Source of the DNA: a virus
Lineage: Duplodnaviria; Caudoviricetes
Virus record (IMG/VR): IMGVR_UViG_3300001528_000285
Span: 1,381 to 65,380 of that record
Strand: one strand, 5' to 3'
DNA: 64,000 nucleotides
Part shown: positions 8,557 to 50,014 of the stretch, in pieces
Layout: each line of letters starts with the position of its first letter
Numbering within the stretch: position 1 is the first letter of the stretch
Notes under the pieces: model-generated
What the model was told of the DNA's origin: nothing
Databases searched by the model: none
What the model saw: only the letters and a program-made list of their open reading frames with translations
Made by a program: the position numbers and the translations under genes

Positions 8557-10008
8557 ATGGCAAGAAAAAAACCTATCATGAACTATACGGATTATGTAGA
8601 AGCAACAACCAGAACTGATCAAGAGAGGGAATATGCTATGGTAACTAATGAGATTTACTCCGGAAAGAAACATGAATATTTTAAGTCATTTAATTTTAAG
8701 GGAAAGTATGATATCGAAGAATATATTAGTCGTATTTCATTTAATGAGATTACAGAACCAAATTTAAGAGATTTGCTTAGTACTGAAAATATTAATTTTG
8801 TATTAATAGGTATTAATCGACTTCAGAGTACTATTCTTTGTGAAGAGGGATTCTCATATGTTCAGCAGTCTCAGAGATATACTCCTGTTGAAGCCTCTTC
8901 TATGTATATTTTAGAAAATACTCCTGAAGAGTTATATATGGATGCTTTTAGACTTAATAAACTTGCAATTAATCTATATAAGACAATTACAGAATTAAAT
9001 GATCCTAATAAGAAGGGTAGACTTAGCAGAGAAGATTTCAAGTATGGCATTCTTTATGAAGAAGCTCGTTGTATTCTTCCTCTTTGTGTTACTACCAATA
9101 TTAGTGTAACTATGTCTGGTGATAAATTGATTGATCTTTATAAGATCTTTAATAAATATCCTCATGTTTTTGCAGCTATGAGGTATCAATTAGATCATTT
9201 ACTTACAAATGGTCTTGTTCATGCTTTAAACCGTGTGTCTAATATTTATATTGAAAAAGATACATCTATTATGGATGATTATTTTAGAAATAAATATAAA
9301 AATTTATGCAATGATCGTAATGTCATTAAGATCGAGAATGATCCTGTAATTGAAAATATTACAATTGGTGCACTTACGAGTCAGAATCAGAAGTCTCCTT
9401 TTGAAATTTATGATAGTTGGGGAGTTAATAAAGTAGAAAATTCTAAGAAGTTAATTTCTAATGTTCTTAGTTATGGACATTATGGAATTTTGGAACAGGG
9501 AAGAACTACATTTGCTATGCAATGCTCTTTGTCCACATATCATCAGGTAATTCGTCATAGACTTCAGAACATTAGACGAGAGCCTCTTATTGATATTGCT
9601 AAGGATATTAATCGTGAGTATATTATTCCTGATAGCATTAAGGCTAGTGAGTTCCTTGAAGATGTTGAAGATATCATTCGTATGTATAAAGAACTTTATA
9701 CAAGATATATCAAGAAAGTTGATGATGCATTCATTATTCAGTTCCTTTTGAACTGTGCTCCTGTAAAGTTCCTTACATCTTCTAATATCAGAAATGATAA
9801 TTGGATTTTCCGTGAAAGACTTTGCTTTACTGCACAGAAAGAAATTCGTGATATGTACGATACTAAATTTATGATTATGAATAATAAACATGCAGATCTT
9901 ATTAAACTTGGTATTCCTCCTTGTGTTACAACTGGAAAATGCAAGGAAGGAAAACTTTGTTGTGGATATGCAGATCTAGTAAATGAACTCTATAAAGATT
10001 ATATTTAA
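8557..10008 (+). CDS. thyX: Tandem-domain flavin-dependent thymidylate synthase-like protein
   Basis: Two ThyX-like halves: SYVQQSQRY and EEARCILP in the N-half; GHYGILEQ, HQVIRHR and AQKEIR in the C-half. Confidence 0.7.
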   Translation: MARKKPIMNYTDYVEATTRTDQEREYAMVTNEIYSGKKHEYFKSFNFKGKYDIEEYISRISFNEITEPNLRDLLSTENINFVLIGINRLQSTILCEEGFSYVQQSQRYTPVEASSMYILENTPEELYMDAFRLNKLAINLYKTITELNDPNKKGRLSREDFKYGILYEEARCILPLCVTTNISVTMSGDKLIDLYKIFNKYPHVFAAMRYQLDHLLTNGLVHALNRVSNIYIEKDTSIMDDYFRNKYKNLCNDRNVIKIENDPVIENITIGALTSQNQKSPFEIYDSWGVNKVENSKKLISNVLSYGHYGILEQGRTTFAMQCSLSTYHQVIRHRLQNIRREPLIDIAKDINREYIIPDSIKASEFLEDVEDIIRMYKELYTRYIKKVDDAFIIQFLLNCAPVKFLTSSNIRNDNWIFRERLCFTAQKEIRDMYDTKFMIMNNKHADLIKLGIPPCVTTGKCKEGKLCCGYADLVNELYKDYI

Positions 10009-23552: not shown

Positions 23553-24764
23553 ATGATGGCAGTTTTAAAAGATGAATATAAACAAATGCTTTTAAAGATG
23601 TCACCTGAGGATATTACAGCAGAGTTTATTTTTAATTATTTAGCAGATTCATCGAAAAGAGAAAATGGTAAACTTGTAGTTACACCTAGTAAGATTAAAA
23701 CATATGATACCTTTGAATTAAAGAAAGGTGAATATTTTAATAAAGAAACTGTTGTTACGAATGTAGGATTATTCATTTTTAATAAGTTTCTTATTGAAGA
23801 ATCATTTGTAAATGTTACTGGGTATATTAATACTCCTGTAACTGCTAAGGTACAAAAGAGTATAGAGAATAAAATTAGTCAGGCTCTTCTGGATGATAAG
23901 ATTACTGTACAACAGATGGTTACATATTTAAATAAATTACAATGGATCTCAAAAGAGTTTAACTCTGTATTCTCTGGTTCTTTTACAATGAAAACTTTAA
24001 AGCCTATTCCTAAGGTTATGAAAAGAAAAGAGCAGTTAATTAAAGAGAATCAAGAATCATTAAAGCAAGGTGATGTTTCAACAGGAGTTAAGATTGAGAA
24101 AGAACTTATTGATATGGCAAAGGAAGAATTAAAAAATGATCCGGGAATGGACCTTTATAATTCTGGTGCTCATGGTTCTTTTGAAAATAACTATAAAAAT
24201 ATTGCAGTGGTTAAAGGATGTGTATATAATCCAATCACTGACAAATGGGATTTCGTCGAATCTTCTTTTATGGAAGGTATTAAGAAAGATGAAATTCCTG
24301 TCGTTGCAAATAGTATTCCTATGGGAGCTTATCCTAAAGCGATCGGTACACAGGTAGGAGGATATCTTTCTAAACAATTCACTGCTGCATTCCAAGGTAA
24401 TGTATTAGATACTCCTGATTCTGATTGTCATACGACAGGAACTTTGGAAGTTACAATTACTCCTTGGTTAAAGTCACAATTGATCTATAGATATATTGTA
24501 GAAGGAAATAAACTAGTTTTATTAGAGCCTGATACAATTGATAAATATATTAATAAGAAAGTAAAACTTCGTTCTCCTATGTTTTGTACAGGTGACAAAC
24601 TTTGCAGTAAATGTGCTGGTTCACTATTCTATAAGCTAGGTATTAAAAATATTGGTTTAACAACTTCTCGTGTTGCTTCTACTATTCTTAATCTTAACTT
24701 AAAGAAGTTCCATAACTCTACTGCAAATATTAATAATATTGATCTTGATAAATTTGATTTATAA
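23553..24764 (+). CDS. Multisubunit RNA polymerase beta-prime subunit, C-terminal part (possibly the virion RNAP)
   Basis: Bridge helix TQVGGYLSKQF...DCHT, Zn site LRSPMFC...CSKC, trigger-loop equivalent NIGL...LKKFH. Confidence 0.85.
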   Translation: MMAVLKDEYKQMLLKMSPEDITAEFIFNYLADSSKRENGKLVVTPSKIKTYDTFELKKGEYFNKETVVTNVGLFIFNKFLIEESFVNVTGYINTPVTAKVQKSIENKISQALLDDKITVQQMVTYLNKLQWISKEFNSVFSGSFTMKTLKPIPKVMKRKEQLIKENQESLKQGDVSTGVKIEKELIDMAKEELKNDPGMDLYNSGAHGSFENNYKNIAVVKGCVYNPITDKWDFVESSFMEGIKKDEIPVVANSIPMGAYPKAIGTQVGGYLSKQFTAAFQGNVLDTPDSDCHTTGTLEVTITPWLKSQLIYRYIVEGNKLVLLEPDTIDKYINKKVKLRSPMFCTGDKLCSKCAGSLFYKLGIKNIGLTTSRVASTILNLNLKKFHNSTANINNIDLDKFDL

Positions 24765-24843: not shown

Positions 24844-25137
24844 GTGATGAAATTCATGAGTTGCATTATTGAAAAAGATAATCTCGGAAGAATTATTCAT
24901 CATATAAGTAGTACTAAACTTATGGAAGAATGGAGAACATTTGATGATTTAGGAAGAATGATTACATATAAAAGAAATGAATATGAAATTCATTTTGAAT
25001 ATACTAGTGAAGGTAAAGTAGTTCATTCATATGATAATACCGGATATGAAACTTGGTCAGAATATAATACGGAAGGAGAGTTAATAAAGTTCATATCGAA
25101 TAAAGGAACCTATTCTTATATTAAAAAAGGAGATTAA
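24844..25137 (+). CDS. Short YD-repeat-like protein
   Basis: Repeated FDDLGRMITYK / YTSEGKVVHSYD-type units. Confidence 0.6.
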   Translation: MMKFMSCIIEKDNLGRIIHHISSTKLMEEWRTFDDLGRMITYKRNEYEIHFEYTSEGKVVHSYDNTGYETWSEYNTEGELIKFISNKGTYSYIKKGD

Positions 25138-25139
25138 TA

Positions 25140-25469
25140 ATGTCTAAAAAAATTAATGAAATTCGTACTTGTGATTCTGAAGGTCGTCTCAAATACTTAA
25201 AGATTGGAGATATCCGTGAAGTTTGGTATGATTACAATGATAAAAACCAAATGATTCACTGGAGAGATTCTGAAGGAAAAGAAGCATGGTATGATTATGA
25301 CCGATTTGGTAATGAGGTTCATATGGTTGCTTCTGATGGCTTTGAGTCTTGGTCTGAATATGACGGACTTTGTAATTTGATTCATTATAAGGATAATACT
25401 GGTCATGAAAGATACTGGTCTTATAATGAAGCAGGTTGCTTGGTAAGAACATATTCTAATAAAAAATAA
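25140..25469 (+). CDS. Short YD-repeat-like protein, tandem paralog
   Basis: Repeated WYDYDRFGNEVH-type units. Confidence 0.65.
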   Translation: MSKKINEIRTCDSEGRLKYLKIGDIREVWYDYNDKNQMIHWRDSEGKEAWYDYDRFGNEVHMVASDGFESWSEYDGLCNLIHYKDNTGHERYWSYNEAGCLVRTYSNKK

Positions 25470-25815
25470 TTTATACTATAACATTACTATAGGTTCCAAA
25501 CTATTTATCCTTGCCCTAAGTGGAAGTCTTAGGGCAAAACTCCTTTCCGTTATAGGAGAGATCATTCCGCACGATGATCTCTCCATTTTTTTATTATGGG
25601 AATGATATTTTCCCACCAGGCATTTGAAGAAATATATTGTTATACCTTCATATACTCGACAACATACTTTCTTCAAATAAAAATTTTCCTTATATGTGAT
25701 AGAGAAGATAATTCTCTATCACATTATTTAATAACTTTTTTAAGTATATATTATATTTGTAAGCATGAAAAATAATTATAGCAAAAATTATTTTAAAATG
25801 AGGTGAAAGTATTTT

Positions 25816-28800
25816 ATGGGTAAAAACAATAAAGGTGTTAAACTTGTAAAATTAAACTGGGACGAAGAATGTCAATTCGATCTAATGAGAGGTCGAGGAT
25901 TTGTTGTATCTGAACCAGCTATTACAGGTAAAGATACAAAATCATTATATGGAATTCAATCACCTCTGTTTGCGACTGATTGGGAGGATGGTGAGGATTC
26001 CTTTACAGATCGTTATAAATGTGCTTGTGGTGCATTAAAAGGAAAGATCTTTGAAGGAGAAACTTGTCCTGAATGTAAGACTAAAGTAGAGTATAGAGAT
26101 GTTGATCTTTCTTATACAGGATGGATCATCTTGAATAATCATAAAATTATTCAACCTATTTATTATAATAAACTCTCCTCTATTATTGGTCCTAAAATCT
26201 TTGCTGAAATTATCAAATATGATAAGTTCATCGACAGAGATGGTCATGTTAAGGATAAGTCTACAGATGCTCAACCGTTCAAAGGTATTGGTTTGATTGA
26301 ATTTAGAGAAAGATTTGATGAAATTTTAGCATATTATAAATCAAAGAAAAAAGGAAAGTTAGAAGAAATTAAAGAAATTGAAGATGATAAAGATAAAATC
26401 TTCACTTCTTCTATTCCTGTCTTTAGTTCAGTTCTTAGACCTATTAGTTTTAGAAACGATAGTTTCTTCTATTCTACCATAAACTTATTTGTGGCATAAT
26501 ATAGTAATATATTATGAAAAACCCTTTTAATTGCTGGGATATCTCTTTGAGATAATCAGCAGCCAAGCTTCTTAATGAAGAAGGTTCAACGACTAAATTG
26601 TACACTCAAGTGAGTGGAAATGAAGGGTAACTTAATTTATTAAGTTAGTGATATAGTCTGATCTTTATAGTAATATAGAGAAGTTCAATATAGAGAACTG
26701 CATAAGATTAACGACCTTATGTGAACATAAATGAGATAAGAAATATAATAGTATTTTCTCGTCTGCAAGACTGTTAAATGATACAGAATTGTATGAGAAG
26801 AGAAGAAAGAAATGGACTAAAGAAAAAAGAGAAAGAATGGATACAGCTACCATTCTTTCAACTATTCAGGATAAACTAATGGAACTATGGGATTTAGTTT
26901 TCGATTTGATTAATCAGAAGGAAGGTTAAAAAGTGGCCTGTGTTTCTCTTAATTGCTGGGACTTCTAAACAAGTAAAGTTGTAGATAATCAGCAGCCAAG
27001 ACTCTTAATGAGTAAGGTTCAACGACTAGATATATACACTCAAGTGGGTGGAAATGGAGAACAACTAATAATTTAGTTGAAGATATAGTCTCATCTATAT
27101 AGAAATATATAGCAGTTCTTTATTGAACGGTATAGAAGTAACGATTCTATATGAAGATATTGCATATAAAGTCGGAAATTCTCGGCGGTATGATCAATTT
27201 TTCCTCTAGATGTGTCATTATCCCTGATCCAGAATTAAAAGCTGATGAAATTCGTTTAAATTACATGGCTTTCCTAGAACTCTACAAATACGAGATAATC
27301 GCATATCTCGTTAAGTTGGAGGGTATTACAGAAAATGAAGCATATGAAACTTGGTTTAAAGCACGCATTGTATATAATCCTAAGGTTTATGAAGTAATGA
27401 ACTTTATCCTTAAGAAAAGAAAACCTAAAGTAATCATTAATCGTAACCCTACCATAAACTTATTTGTGGCATAATATAGTGATATATTATGAAAACCCTT
27501 TTAATTGCTGAGACTTCTAAACAAGTAAAGTTGTAGATAATCAGCAGCCAAGACTCTTAATGAGTAAGGTTCAACGACTAAATGTACATCCAAGTGGATG
27601 GAAATGAAGGGTAACTTAATAAATTAAGTTAGTGATATAGTCTGATCTTTATAGTAATATAAAGCAGTCCTTAATAGACGGGATAGAATTAACGAATCTA
27701 TCTGAACAAGATGAAATTATGGATCATTAATGTGTGTAAAAGTTAAATCTATTAAAAATGAATTTTCTGAAGATTATACTATGAGTTTAAATATGTTTAT
27801 TCTTAATGCATTAAATGCTGATCAACATTAAGGTCAGGGTCAATAGTAATATTGACTATGAATCCTGTGAACGCTTAACAGGCGGTGTAGAATAGTTATA
27901 TTCTGCTAACGGTAAGAGTTAAATAAGGTATATATTATATACACGAATAAGCTCTCTAAGAAATCCTAAGGTCTATATATTATATAGATAGCTGGTAATA
28001 CCGTGCCAAGCTTTAATTAACTAATACAGTTTATATAAAATATACCAAAAAAAAAATAGAAAGGAGGATACTATATGAAAGACGATCTATATACAATAGA
28101 AATAATTCCATATGGTGTTATATATAAATCAACAAATAAATTAAATGGTAAAATTTATATTGGTAAAACAGTAAATTATATTCGTCGTATGAATGAATAT
28201 AAAACAAGAAAAGTTTTAGGCAATAAAAAATATAATTATAATATAATGCGAGAGATTAATTTAGTTGGTTTTAATAATTTTACATCAGAAGTTATTGATT
28301 ATGCATTTAGTAAAGAACAACTTGAATATCTTGAAAAGTTCTATATTATAACATATGATGCTATAAATCCTAATATAGGGTATAATTCTAGAACTGGTGA
28401 TCTTAACGAACCATTAAATAATAAAACTCGTGAATTAATGTCTAAATCACATTTAGGATTAACTGAAACTTCAATAACAAAACGTAAAAAATCTAAAAAG
28501 GTTATAGCCTTTAAAGATAATATTTGGTATATTGCAGATAGTGGTAAATTATTTGCTGATTATATTGATAGTAGTAAAGATATGGTGAGTCATGCAATAA
28601 ATAAATGTATGAAAATACAAGGATATTATGTTTTTCGATATGACACTACCAAAGATTTACTAGATAAATATAATAAACTTAAAGATAAAAACTATGCTAA
28701 ACTGTATATGGAAATTAAAGAAGGTCTAGAGACTATCGAAAAGTCATTAAATGTTGTTTATATTCAATATGATGACTAAGTAGAGTACCTATCAGTTGGA

Positions 28801-29321
28801 ATGGCTGATCGGGAAGTGCAGGACTCCCTGTAGTAATATATTACTACAGGGATGAAGATATAGTCCACACTTATATGAAAATATAAGATTATGTGTTTGA
28901 TGGTGACATTCTTAATATTATTAGTTTGAAGACTAAGAAATTAGAAAAAGCATATGATAAGATTTTTAATCCTAGAAAGAATATGTATGTTAGTAGAAAT
29001 GATGGCTTATTCTCTAATGAGTTTAATCTCTACAAAGACATGACGATAGGGTAAAGATGAGTATTGCCCATTCTTTCTTAATTGCTGGAATATCTAAACA
29101 AGTAATGTTGTAGACAATCAGCAGCCAAGACTCAAAAGAGTAAGGTTCAACGACTAGTGCTTAGCACGTACACTCAAGTGAGTGAAAATGGAAAGACACT
29201 TATTAAAGTGAAGATATAGTCTGGTCTCTATAGAAATATAGAGCAGTTCTTAATAGAGCGGTATAAGAGTAACGATCTTATATGAACACAAATCGTATAT
29301 TCATTCAATACAATTGAGTAA
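25816..29321 (+). CDS. RNA polymerase beta-prime subunit, N-terminal catalytic part; six exons, 480 aa after splicing
   Basis: Exons 25816-26480, 26734-26926, 27163-27455, 27714-27822, 28896-29052 and 29296-29321 sum to 1443 nt in one frame. The product has a Zn finger (CACG...CPEC), NFSSRCVI, NRNPT and the rejoined NADFDGD. Confidence 0.9.
26481..26733 (+). ncRNA. Group I intron 1 (ORF-less, 253 nt)
   Basis: Exon ends in U, intron ends in G; core elements AATTGCTGG, AATCAGCAGCC, GTTCAACGACTA, GATATAGTCT. Confidence 0.88.
26927..27162 (+). ncRNA. Group I intron 2 (ORF-less, 236 nt)
   Basis: Same core elements; P1 AGGT/GCCT; removal joins QKEG to HIKSEILGG. Confidence 0.88.
27456..27713 (+). 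ncRNA. Group I intron 3 (ORF-less, 258 nt)
   Basis: Same core elements; removal gives NRNPTINYGS. Confidence 0.88.
27823..28895 (+). mobile_element. Group I intron 4 (1073 nt) carrying a homing endonuclease
   Basis: Inserted between the codons for NAD and FDGD; P1 CTGAT/GTCAG; GAGACTA and GAAGATATAGTCC core elements; terminal G. Confidence 0.88.
28075..28779 (+). CDS. GIY-YIG homing endonuclease
   Basis: GVIYKSTNKLNGKIYIGKT, RR, E, GYN motifs; C-terminal NUMOD1-like segment; RBS GAAAGGAGG. Confidence 0.9.
   Translation: MKDDLYTIEIIPYGVIYKSTNKLNGKIYIGKTVNYIRRMNEYKTRKVLGNKKYNYNIMREINLVGFNNFTSEVIDYAFSKEQLEYLEKFYIITYDAINPNIGYNSRTGDLNEPLNNKTRELMSKSHLGLTETSITKRKKSKKVIAFKDNIWYIADSGKLFADYIDSSKDMVSHAINKCMKIQGYYVFRYDTTKDLLDKYNKLKDKNYAKLYMEIKEGLETIEKSLNVVYIQYDD
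29053..29295 (+). ncRNA. Group I intron 5 (ORF-less, 243 nt)
   Basis: Same core elements; P1 GGGT/GCCC; removal gives DMTIGLYSFNTIE*. Confidence 0.85.
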
Positions 29322-29341: not shown

Positions 29342-29764
29342 ATGCTTAAGAAAATTATTCTTAGAAAAACTATTATTAAATATTTTGCAGAAGAATTAGC
29401 AAATCTTCAGAAATCAGCAGATACTTGGTATTATATTAAACATGACCAGAATCAATCTAGTTATGTATTAGATGTAGCTACCGGTATTATTCGTCTTGCT
29501 AGAAAAATGGGAATTTTAAATGAAATATATGAAGAAGCATATAAAATTTATGATTTCCGTAATTCTGGTAAGACTGGATATACTCTTAAAGATGGAAAGA
29601 TTGTAATAGATTCAGATAGTAAAGATATAGCTACATCTATTGATGGTATTACATGGACAGCTGAAAAATTACCTGGTGATATTGACTTAACTAAAGTACA
29701 TTATCAAGACGGTACTTATGCGTTAATGCCAAATGATGATAATGATTATAGAGAAAAAAAATAA
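29342..29764 (+). CDS. Hypothetical protein with one Asp-box-like repeat
   Basis: RBS GGAGG; TSIDGITWTAEKLP near the C-terminus. Confidence 0.7.
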   Translation: MLKKIILRKTIIKYFAEELANLQKSADTWYYIKHDQNQSSYVLDVATGIIRLARKMGILNEIYEEAYKIYDFRNSGKTGYTLKDGKIVIDSDSKDIATSIDGITWTAEKLPGDIDLTKVHYQDGTYALMPNDDNDYREKK

Positions 29765-29893
29765 ATAATTTAAAGTAATATAAATACCCCTAGAAGAGAA
29801 ATCTTCTAGGGGTTTATTTTTTTTTATAGAAAAATATATCTTCTTTAACAGTTTATATAATAAAGATAATTAATGATTGGAGGAGATTTTTCT

Positions 29894-30472
29894 ATGATCC
29901 TTAGTGGAAATGAGATACTAAAAGAAAGAGAAAATGGTAATATCATCATAGAACCATTTAATAGGAGTCAACTAAATCCTAATAGTTATAATTTGAAATT
30001 ATCTGATGAATTATTAGTTTATAGTATTCCACACCATTGTGATATGGTAAAAGATGATAGTGGGTATATTGCCCCTGGACCTATTACACAAATGTATCCT
30101 CTTGATATGTTTGAAAAGCATGAAACTGAACGAATCATTATTCCTAGAGAAGGATATGTATTATATCCTGGAATCTTATATTTAGGAAAGACTGTAGAAT
30201 ATACAGAAACTCATAAATATTTACCTTGTTTAGAAGGTAGAAGTAGTATTGGAAGATTGGGAATGACTATTCATGTAACGGCCGGGTTTGGAGATGTAGG
30301 ATTTGCAGGAAACTGGACCCTAGAGATTAGTTGTGTACAACCTATTAGAATTTATCCTTTTACTGAAGTATGTCAGATTTATTATCAAGAAGTAAAAGGT
30401 GAAATTGAAGAATATCATGGCAGATATCAAGGTCAGAGAGATGTAACAGCATCTCGTATGTTTGAGGGATAA
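29894..30472 (+). CDS. dcd: dCTP deaminase
   Basis: MILSGNEI, QLNPNSYNL, GRSSIGRLG, AGFGDVGFAGNWTLEI, YQGQ. Confidence 0.92.
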   Translation: MILSGNEILKERENGNIIIEPFNRSQLNPNSYNLKLSDELLVYSIPHHCDMVKDDSGYIAPGPITQMYPLDMFEKHETERIIIPREGYVLYPGILYLGKTVEYTETHKYLPCLEGRSSIGRLGMTIHVTAGFGDVGFAGNWTLEISCVQPIRIYPFTEVCQIYYQEVKGEIEEYHGRYQGQRDVTASRMFEG

Positions 30473-30804: not shown

Positions 30805-31440
30805 ATGTCTTGGGACCCGTATGTAAATTTGGAAAAGGAGTATTATTCTGAGATCCGAGACAAGAAAAGAGCAGGAGTTGGAGACTTCAAGAAGAAGCGT
30901 GGCTCCAAATCTAGAAAATGTACACTTCCTAGCGATAATATGACAAAAAAGGAGTTAAACAAAATGAATGGCGAGGTTAAGACTTACAACATGAAAAAGA
31001 GATATTCCTATAAAGAGCTTAAAACTTTCCCTGAGGATATTCAAAAAGAATACCTCAAAAATTTGATGACTACTTATAATGCAAATAATAAAATGCTGGG
31101 TGAATCCTTAGGAGTTTCTCAGTCTATCGTTTCATTTTATCTGAAACAATTTAGACTGAATCCTGGTAAGGGTAATATTAAAAAGCCTGATGAAAAGCAA
31201 AAAAATGAGTGGAATCTTTTCATCAATGGTAATTCTCAGAAGCTTGATATTGAAAATAAAGCTAATGCTACTGAGAAGAAGGAAGAAACTAAGCCTGTAT
31301 CTGGAAACAGCATTTCTCTCAATTCTTTGTCTCTTGAAATGACCGGAGATGTATCTACTATTCTCTGGTTAATTGAAGAGAAGCTTCATGGAAAATCCGG
31401 TACTATCAAAATTTCCTTTGAGGAAAAATCCAATGGGTAA
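30805..31440 (+). CDS. Hypothetical protein, possibly DNA-binding
   Basis: RBS, early-type motif at 30756; HTH-like LGESLGVSQSIV. Confidence 0.7.
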   Translation: MSWDPYVNLEKEYYSEIRDKKRAGVGDFKKKRGSKSRKCTLPSDNMTKKELNKMNGEVKTYNMKKRYSYKELKTFPEDIQKEYLKNLMTTYNANNKMLGESLGVSQSIVSFYLKQFRLNPGKGNIKKPDEKQKNEWNLFINGNSQKLDIENKANATEKKEETKPVSGNSISLNSLSLEMTGDVSTILWLIEEKLHGKSGTIKISFEEKSNG

Positions 31441-31954
31441 TTACATACTTACTGGAATTACCACTACATTACCAAATGGAAAGGTCTTACACAAAATTCA
31501 AGCAACTCAATCATTTGGTGATGTTTTGAGATGGCAATATGGCGGATATATCGAAAGTCCAAAGAATCTTTCTAGTGGAGGATTCTGTTGGGTGTATGAT
31601 AATGCCAAAGTATATGGAAATGCTTCTGTAACTGGAAATGCAAAAGTTAAAGGAAATGCACTTGTCTTTGATAATGCAAAGATTTCAGGAAATTCTGTTG
31701 TTAGTGATGATGCATGGATTTTCGAAAATGCAGTTGTTAAAGATAATGCAACAGTTAAAGATACTGCATGTATTTTTGGTAATGCACAGGTTTTAGACCA
31801 TGCCAAGGTCAATGGAAATGCATGGGTTTATGAAAATGCTAAAATTGTAGAATATGGAGTAGTTAATGGTGATGGTACAGGAAAAAAAGATCCCTTTAGT
31901 ATTAACAGAGTTTCCGCAGGTTCAAGAATCTTTAGTAATGTGATTATAAAATAA
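31433..31954 (+). CDS. Left-handed beta-helix (hexapeptide repeat) protein
   Basis: VYDNAK/VYGNAS/VTGNAK hexad repeats; start overlaps the upstream stop. Confidence 0.8.
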   Translation: MGNYILTGITTTLPNGKVLHKIQATQSFGDVLRWQYGGYIESPKNLSSGGFCWVYDNAKVYGNASVTGNAKVKGNALVFDNAKISGNSVVSDDAWIFENAVVKDNATVKDTACIFGNAQVLDHAKVNGNAWVYENAKIVEYGVVNGDGTGKKDPFSINRVSAGSRIFSNVIIK

Positions 31955-48667: not shown

Positions 48668-50014
48668 TTATTCACCTTCTTTCGAAAGATTTTTTAAATA
48701 CTCATACTCCTCTTCTCCAATAATTTCAACAGCCCATTCTTTAGGGATATATAATTCATATCTTTCTGTCATATTATTTTTTCTATAATGATTATTCCAA
48801 AGATATGAAATAGCCAATACTCTAGCCTTATGCATAACACATGTATAAGTAAGTCTCTTATTAGGAGAACCTGTTACTTCATAATTATATGCAGTGCACC
48901 AGCCACAACCACCAGCAATAGGACAATTAAAACATTCATCAGTAGACTGAGATCTTCTTGTTATACATCTAAGACAATCTACTCTATCACACTGAGTTTT
49001 TGTCTGCATAATTCCATTATAAACATCACCAATAATATAGGGTTCTTGTTTACCACAAATAGAATTATCCATATAACGTGTACATGGGAAGATATCACCT
49101 TTCCAGTCAACAGATATCATTAATCCATTTCCACCACACCAATTATTATCATTATCAGGTGATAAAGGCTTTCCTGCATACATAGGATCGAGTATAGATA
49201 AATATATCTCATCAACTAAATTATTCTCGATCAAATAATCAGAGATTTCTTTTAGTTGTTGATATAAAATCCTTGCATGCTCTACTGTCCATCCTTCTTC
49301 ATATACACAGTTTAAATTAATATTTACATACCCAGTATCAATCATTGATACAATTGCTTTCTTTAGATACATGATATTTCCAGGAGCAATTGTCAATTTT
49401 GAATTTACCATACGTCCATAAGTTTTTCTAAAATGGTTTACAGCAGCCATTGCTCTATCATAGCTACCTCGTCCTAATGCATCAACTCTACATGCATCAT
49501 GTAACTCTTTATTACCATCAATAGAAATACCAAGAGACAAATGATTAATATTTTTCTTTATATAATTTTGAACTTTTTCATCAAAATATAACATACCATT
49601 GGAACAGATACTCACTCGATATCTATTAGCCCAAGGATGTTGTCTAATAAAACACTGCTCAATAAAATAATCAGTAATCTGATCGAGTAAATCAATCTCT
49701 AAGAAAGGCTCACCTCCAATGAATTCAAGAATTGCTCCTTTTGAATCATCAGATGTGATATATTGATTTACTCGTTCATCTGCATCTAAAACCATATCAA
49801 TAAATCTTTTTGCTACATCAAAAGACATATGATTATGACGCTTTTCATGTTGATAACAATACGTACATCTTAAACAGCAATCTTCAGTTACAGCAAAAGT
49901 TATATTTTTTACATGATTACCATTGATATGTATTGGTGAAAAATCATCATCAGGAAATAATCTATTGATACTATCATTATAACCTTCAGTGCTATTTTTA
50001 TGCATAGATAACAT
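48668..50014 (-). CDS. Radical SAM/SPASM peptide maturase, CXXX-repeat target family
   Basis: CCLRCTYC motif, FIGGEP, SIDG; SPASM CGGNG...FPC...CFNC...GCGWC...C. Confidence 0.9.
   Translation of the reverse strand: MLSMHKNSTEGYNDSINRLFPDDDFSPIHINGNHVKNITFAVTEDCCLRCTYCYQHEKRHNHMSFDVAKRFIDMVLDADERVNQYITSDDSKGAILEFIGGEPFLEIDLLDQITDYFIEQCFIRQHPWANRYRVSICSNGMLYFDEKVQNYIKKNINHLSLGISIDGNKELHDACRVDALGRGSYDRAMAAVNHFRKTYGRMVNSKLTIAPGNIMYLKKAIVSMIDTGYVNINLNCVYEEGWTVEHARILYQQLKEISDYLIENNLVDEIYLSILDPMYAGKPLSPDNDNNWCGGNGLMISVDWKGDIFPCTRYMDNSICGKQEPYIIGDVYNGIMQTKTQCDRVDCLRCITRRSQSTDECFNCPIAGGCGWCTAYNYEVTGSPNKRLTYTCVMHKARVLAISYLWNNHYRKNNMTERYELYIPKEWAVEIIGEEEYEYLKNLSKEGE

Follow-up and report, generated by a model that had tools for sequence, protein, structure and literature searches.

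A stretch of 64,000 nucleotides (nt) of viral DNA, positions 1,381 to 65,380 of the IMG/VR record IMGVR_UViG_3300001528_000285 and hereafter called the window, carries at positions 25816-29321 a single RNA polymerase (RNAP) gene that is broken into six exons. The source contig has 65,380 bases, nearly all of which lie in the window, and a CheckV completeness of 27%; it represents part of a jumbo phage genome of roughly 240 kb. From its sequence, we put at about 0.9 the probability that the locus encodes the N-terminal half of the β′ subunit of the non-virion RNAP (nvRNAP) of an uncultivated AR9/PBS1-like jumbo phage, with five selfish group I introns. The junctions were searched for under the constraints laid down in an initial annotation of this DNA, namely exon lengths of 665, 193, 293, 109, 157 and 26 nt, a T at the end of each 5′ exon, a G at the end of each intron and an open frame, and exactly one in-frame solution satisfies them. 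In the resulting map, RF00028 is the Rfam covariance model for group I introns (gathering score 50 bits), family A is the group of related ribozymes to which introns 1, 2, 3 and 5 belong, L001 is the closest relative of the window phage, a 263.8-kb IMG/VR genome whose ortholog shares 83% protein and 78% DNA identity, and ^ marks a splice site here and throughout; lengths are in nt or amino acids (aa), and ORF stands for open reading frame.

25802-25808, plus strand: Shine-Dalgarno-like GAGGTGA, 7 nt 5′ of the ATG, as read from the sequence
25816-26480, plus strand: exon 1, 665 nt, aa 1-221 plus 2 nt, with a Zn-finger CxC...CxxC
26481-26733, plus strand: intron 1, group I family A, 253 nt, no ORF, RF00028 92.6 bits
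26734-26926, plus strand: exon 2, 193 nt; L001 is uninterrupted at both flanking junctions
26927-27162, plus strand: intron 2, group I family A, 236 nt, no ORF, RF00028 80.5 bits
27163-27455, plus strand: exon 3, 293 nt, carrying HIKSEILGGMINFSSRCVIIPDP ... INRNPT
27456-27713, plus strand: intron 3, group I family A, 258 nt, no ORF, RF00028 83.9 bits
27714-27822, plus strand: exon 4, 109 nt, ending LNALNAD
27823-28895, plus strand: intron 4, 1073 nt, a separate ribozyme lineage, at the site NAD^FDGD, with a partial RF00028 match
28075-28779, plus strand: predicted GIY-YIG homing endonuclease ORF inside intron 4, 234 aa (705 nt), with its own AGGAGG ribosome-binding site
28896-29052, plus strand: exon 5, 157 nt, starting FDGDILNII
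29053-29295, plus strand: intron 5, group I family A, 243 nt, no ORF, RF00028 79.4 bits
29296-29321, plus strand: exon 6, 26 nt, finishing a Leu codon and adding YSFNTIE and the stop

This map bears out all the sequence features that the initial annotation had described. Its six in-frame exons are the sole solution, and the 1443-nt spliced coding sequence (480 aa plus stop) encodes a product that can be aligned over its entire length with 13 uninterrupted homologs of 472-505 aa, with zero gaps at the junctions; such an alignment had been proposed there as a check. The U at the end of the 5′ exons and the G at the end of the introns hold true of all five introns, and the intron lengths of the mapped boundaries (253 + 236 + 258 + 1073 + 243) sum to the 2063 of 3506 nt that it had given. 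The last exon, which it had credited with only eight residues, ends the protein with LYSFNTIE, in agreement with both the conserved C-terminal GLxxFNxI of the intronless homologs and IIGLWSFNNIE of L001. The list of ORFs, which it had described as fragmentary for this gene, holds just a 227-aa fragment and the endonuclease ORF.

Excision in silico restores colinearity with the intronless alleles and rebuilds three conserved β′ motifs, QKEG-HIKSEILGGMINFSSRC at junction 2, NRNPT-I-NYGS at junction 3 and NADFDGD at junction 4. We take QKEG-HIKSEILGGMINFSSRC to be the counterpart of a bacterial β′ stretch, and NADFDGD, the metal-binding loop, is present only once intron 4 has been removed. An in-frame stop lies 0-6 codons past the 5′ splice site in all five introns: six codons into intron 1, as a TAA that opens intron 2 and, at intron 5, immediately in the unspliced frame (GGG TAA). 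Unspliced RNA would thus yield truncated protein only. For annotation this means that gene callers see an essential polymerase subunit as a mere 227-aa fragment, and that its catalytic NADFDGD motif is absent from the DNA; inventories of jumbo-phage RNAPs that are based on metagenomes will overlook such genes or give them the wrong size if introns are left out of the gene models.

We next consider the nature of the intervening sequences. The initial annotation had called all five group I introns and suggested a search with a group I covariance model. In that search introns 1, 2, 3 and 5 exceed the gathering score, at 79 to 93 bits (E 1e-19 to 1e-23); intron 5 was lost to the speed filters in the whole-window run at the gathering threshold and recovered at its 79.4 bits in a permissive run. 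The same four introns and two ORF-less introns of a relative share a consensus fold with compensatory changes at 18 of its 53 pairs (comparisons within family A were made by blastn and RNAalifold, and the compensatory analysis covers these six introns). All five introns of the window have a P1 helix with 4-5 exon base pairs that ends in U.G; the guide G lies 9-13 nt from the start of the intron, whose last base is in every case G. The pairings are CCAU^AAA with UUU.GUGG for intron 1, closed by its U.G, AGGU^UA with UG.GCCU for intron 2, CUGAU^C with G.GUCAG for intron 4 and GGGU^AA with UU.GCCC for intron 5; the P1 of intron 3 is identical to that of intron 1.

Intron 4 shares with the other four a P1 that ends in U.G and a terminal G; its RF00028 match, over P8, J8/7, P7 and P9 at 28754-28887, is only partial, at 35 bits (E 2e-6), below the gathering score. 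The score is partial because the 705-nt ORF breaks the ribozyme model. Visual comparison with the Rfam consensus and with family A places P7 (GGACU/AGUCC) and P8 3′ of the ORF, which appears to be looped out of P6. Over 185 nt, the 5′ part of the intron shares 68% identity with an intron that occupies this site in another relative, L010. The ORF itself is a predicted GIY-YIG homing endonuclease, matching Pfam PF01541 at 25.3 bits against a cut-off of 22.6 and a PHROG of homing endonucleases at E 5e-18. A whole-contig search found no introns beyond this RNAP gene, and blastn with the introns returned only a 33-nt match at 49193-49225, which is probably due to chance.

From these features we infer splicing at the five junctions. 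Each intron would leave by guanosine attack after the exon U that is paired with G in P1, followed by ligation of the exons after the terminal G. Two transesterifications per intron would in this way produce a 1443-nt mRNA and a 480-aa protein with its NADFDGD loop intact.

The identity of the protein was established from the spliced product and from exon 1. The 480-aa product is an ortholog of AR9 g270 (tblastn 4e-39), which is annotated as the nvRNAP β′ N-terminus, and the counterpart in Staphylococcus jumbo phages is annotated as a non-viral RNAP β′ subunit. One of its homologs, P0005, matches the AR9 nvRNAP β′ chain in the Protein Data Bank (7S00_d) at 7e-48 and the best cellular β′ at only 8e-14, so that AR9 gp270, chain d of 7S00, outscores cellular β′. 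The C-terminus of the product lies 54 aa past NADFDGD, as in the homologs; this is the arrangement of a split β′, in which the chain stops soon after the double-psi β-barrel and a separate gene supplies the other half. Exon 1 gave no recognition in Pfam and was identified by PHROGs and homolog searches: it belongs to phrog_2987, 'RNA polymerase beta subunit' (E 4e-17), and a full HMMER scan found 414 relatives at E<=1e-3, many of them 470-510 aa long. Exon 3 has a weak Pfam match to RNA_pol_Rpb1_2 (E 0.0017). In a nucleotide search of a phage collection, the sole match was an intron-like stretch of 86 nt in Bacillus phage Internexus, and no close cultured relative came up.

Introns in RNAP genes of this kind have precedents. 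As the initial annotation had stated for AR9-like phages, the orthologous AR9 g270 has an intron, and MarsHill-like phages, like AR9, have introns in RNAP genes (bioRxiv 10.1101/2020.12.14.422802). AR9 g270 and the window gene both end about 50 aa past the catalytic loop and both have an endonuclease-bearing intron in that motif. In AR9, however, there is a single intron, after DYDG^D, with the HNH endonuclease g271, whereas the window gene has five and a GIY-YIG endonuclease at NAD^FDGD, 9 nt upstream of the AR9 site. Elsewhere in phages, up to three introns per gene are recorded for Twort orf142 and for polymerase and terminase genes of Bastillevirinae (PMC11878797). These resemble the window gene in holding several small related group I introns, near enough to one another for exon skipping, but they have three introns in a different host gene, while the window gene has five, two of them with identical guide and target. 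Among crAss-like phages of the Zeta group, one example is a major capsid protein gene in five fragments, and there are up to 14 introns per genome (PMC7886860); the Jug gut jumbo phages have a mean of 18.5 introns per genome, and metatranscriptome reads confirmed roughly half of those tested (PMC12880540). Massive group I intron infestation is common to all of them and the window phage; they represent other lineages, with five fragments of a capsid gene, whereas the window phage is AR9/PBS1-like, with two multisubunit RNAPs, and has six exons in 1.44 kb.

The initial annotation had called five introns in a coding sequence of this length (1.44 kb, or about one intron every 290 nt) a very high density. 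It does lie above the published phage cases that we found (three introns; five fragments), but six exons in 1.44 kb exceed them only slightly; the density is not unprecedented, and no record can be claimed.

The intron complement of the gene is not conserved among relatives. The L001 ortholog is continuous across all five window sites and instead has four introns, at residues equivalent to 205, 295, 303 and 322 of the window protein, where the window sites are at 221, 286, 383, 420 and 472. The two genes therefore have nine different intron sites, none in common, and the exon flanks around the sites differ at synonymous positions. All four L001 introns belong to family A, as do window introns 1, 2, 3 and 5, at 72-79% identity, and in two of them an HNH-type ORF lies near position 102 of the family-A ribozyme. 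Orthologs that are 83% identical but interrupted at wholly different sites indicate that the intron landscape of one essential gene turns over very fast. Among 16 related loci, window and L001 included, the gene is uninterrupted in 8; the others have about one to three interruptions, apart from the four of L001 and the five of the window. Some sites recur in distant relatives: L010, L011 and L015 are interrupted at the intron 3 site (NRNPT plus 2 nt), and L010 at the intron 4 site as well. AR9 and L008 share the neighbouring site DG^D. Two complete relatives have 14 and 19 RF00028 matches, spread over many genes.

Several smaller observations were made on these relatives. In L001, a micro-exon of 22 nt (8398-8419), encoding (M)INFSSRC, lies between group I introns at 8147-8397 and 8420-8650. 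The first L001 intron (6609-7876) has an HNH ORF and a good P1 (CCGU/GCGG). It offers no G-preceded 3′ splice site that keeps the invariant LRP: the boundary that keeps LRP follows an A, and the nearest G positions, 7867 and 7882, give a stop or delete Leu-Arg. Possible causes are an unusual 3′ splice site and an error in the sequence. L015, the 249-kb relative with 19 RF00028 matches, has three near-tandem introns in the gene upstream of β′-N and three in β′-N itself (L015:188-1446 and L015:5817-7256). The called sequence of P0009, a 475-aa homolog, ends in ...NADQ followed by unrelated residues, evidently because the caller ran on into an intron at NAD^FDGD, the site of window intron 4.

Introns 1, 2 and 3 of the window are related in a more intricate way. 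Introns 1 and 3 follow the same 5′ exon 7-mer, CTACCAT, and the next exon base is A in both cases (an 8-nt target, CTACCAT^A); they have identical P1 and guide and interrupt their codons in the same phase (both phase 2). Intron 3 is a mosaic. Over its first 60 aligned columns it is identical to intron 1 at 56 of 60 positions and to intron 2 at 21 of 60, whereas over the next 67 columns, in the middle, it matches intron 2 at 66 of 67 and intron 1 at 48 of 67. Such a make-up indicates that intron sequence was copied or exchanged between sites within the gene, for which guide-directed reverse splicing, or recombination with gene conversion, are candidate routes.

A more specific proposal is that ORF-less introns multiply within the gene without an endonuclease of their own: an intron would enter an ectopic site by guide-directed reverse splicing, the P4-P6 part of intron 3 would have been exchanged with intron 2, and skipping from exon 1 to exon 4 would give a second product. 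We hold this proposal tentatively, at well below even odds. The same phase, the same target, the identical guide and the 93%-identical P1-P3 of introns 1 and 3 are what reverse splicing into an ectopic site predicts, and introns 2 and 3 are 99% identical over the exchanged P4-P6. The corresponding two uninterrupted sites in L001 read ACGAT^T and would not pair with the guide of introns 1 and 3. Since the two introns share phase 2 and a guide, either ribozyme can pair with either 5′ exon, and exon 1 could be joined to exon 4 in frame, with the loss of 162 aa. For Twort orf142, related group I introns are reported to cause exon skipping (Landthaler and Shub 1999, as cited in PMC11878797). If the proposal were true, the window gene and its L001 ortholog, with the four other intron sites and the 22-nt micro-exon of the latter, would form a compact natural system for the endonuclease-independent spread of group I introns in phages.

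Taken together, the non-conserved set of introns and the presence of introns of the same kind over many genes point to mobile selfish elements rather than to a conserved regulatory design. The five introns are best read as selfish elements that have accumulated in the most conserved stretches of an essential gene, their sites falling within the motifs LRP...ST^I, QKEG^H, NRNPT^I, NAD^FDGD and IG^L. As to how they arrived, homing, spread from one intron copy to another and recombination between the copies are the likely routes. The locus reveals no new kind of element or mechanism; it is useful for studying how ORF-less group I introns spread and whether competition between related jumbo phages is mediated by their intron endonucleases.

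Such competition might be a function of the introns besides their selfish spread. The GIY-YIG endonuclease would cut the uninterrupted NAD^FDGD site of co-infecting relatives, and occupied sites would be protected. A close precedent is PhiPA3 gp210, an HNH endonuclease borne by a group I intron in the RNAP β gene of a jumbo phage, which inhibits a co-infecting relative, PhiKZ, in phage-phage competition (PMC11620839). In both PhiPA3 and the window, the RNAP gene of a jumbo phage is interrupted at a conserved acidic motif by a group I intron with a homing endonuclease; the PhiPA3 enzyme, however, is HNH, lies in the β subunit gene and had its function shown experimentally, whereas that of the window is GIY-YIG, lies in β′ and has its function predicted from sequence. 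The non-overlapping intron sets of two phages 83% identical in this gene, with one GIY-YIG ORF facing two HNH ORFs, and the synonymous exon-flank differences around the sites also fit a device of this kind. Four of the five introns encode no enzyme, however, and neutral selfish turnover predicts the same pattern equally well; we therefore regard a competitive or immunity function as possible but rather doubtful.

A regulatory role finds less room. The initial annotation had proposed that five splicing events gate production of the subunit, as a possible timing checkpoint. On such a reading, selection would keep them in order to delay or limit the nvRNAP and so to time the switch to late transcription. 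Full-length β′-N does require five successful splicings, translation of unspliced RNA stops 0-6 codons into each intron, and the gene lies in a unit of its own flanked by terminator-like hairpins:

25555-25584, plus strand: terminator-like hairpin with a T-run, upstream of the gene, at the start of the transcription unit
29786-29813, no strand assigned: bidirectional terminator-like hairpin past a small ORF at 29342-29764, at the end of the unit

The checkpoint nonetheless fares badly against the comparison of relatives, because relatives do not share the set of introns: in the closest ortholog all five are absent and four others are present, 8 of the 15 other related loci are uninterrupted, AR9 has its one intron at yet another site, and the relatives carry introns of the same kind in many unrelated genes. 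We consider a selected gate unsupported and quite improbable. A certain delay or a lower yield may still result from the five obligatory splicings; as splicing must precede translation of the full-length subunit, either would be a trivial consequence.

The least probable alternative, a decayed gene in which the intervening sequences stay or repeats mis-joined in assembly, could appeal to the source, a 65-kb metagenomic fragment that is 27% complete, and to the long identical stretches between introns, but we rate both the pseudogene and the artefact as very unlikely, because the six exons are complete, ordered, in frame and stop-free and align with homologs along their whole length, the ribozyme cores have scores well over the threshold together with compensatory changes, and the independent 264-kb genome of L001 has the same kind of architecture.

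A few points do weigh against the reading of the locus as an nvRNAP β′-N gene with five selfish introns. Splicing is predicted from the DNA; intron 4 falls under the Rfam gathering score, its core having been traced partly by eye; the assembly is metagenomic, and identical stretches, the longest of about 67 nt, recur between introns. A mosaic made by the assembler is conceivable, though the order and completeness of the exons argue otherwise. The survey of relatives was seeded with intact motifs (NADFDGD, NFTARNVIV), which biases the frequencies of interrupted and uninterrupted genes.

The neighbouring genes were also inspected. Upstream, at 23553-24764, lies an uninterrupted 403-aa ORF that belongs to phrog_2962, 'RNA polymerase beta subunit' (E 1.5e-73), and is a second RNAP subunit gene; it has no Pfam match. 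Downstream, at 29873-30472, is a homolog of dCTP deaminase (phrog_1663, E 5e-44), compatible with a uracil-DNA phage of the PBS1/AR9 group. Two small adjacent ORFs of 96 and 109 aa at 24847-25469 have RHS/YD-type repeats, the second matching Pfam RHS_repeat at E 1.5e-5; such repeats are unusual in phage proteins as short as these. Finally, two overlapping ORFs on the same strand, at 30805-31440 and 31373-31954, may be parts of a single gene that a frameshift or an insertion has divided.

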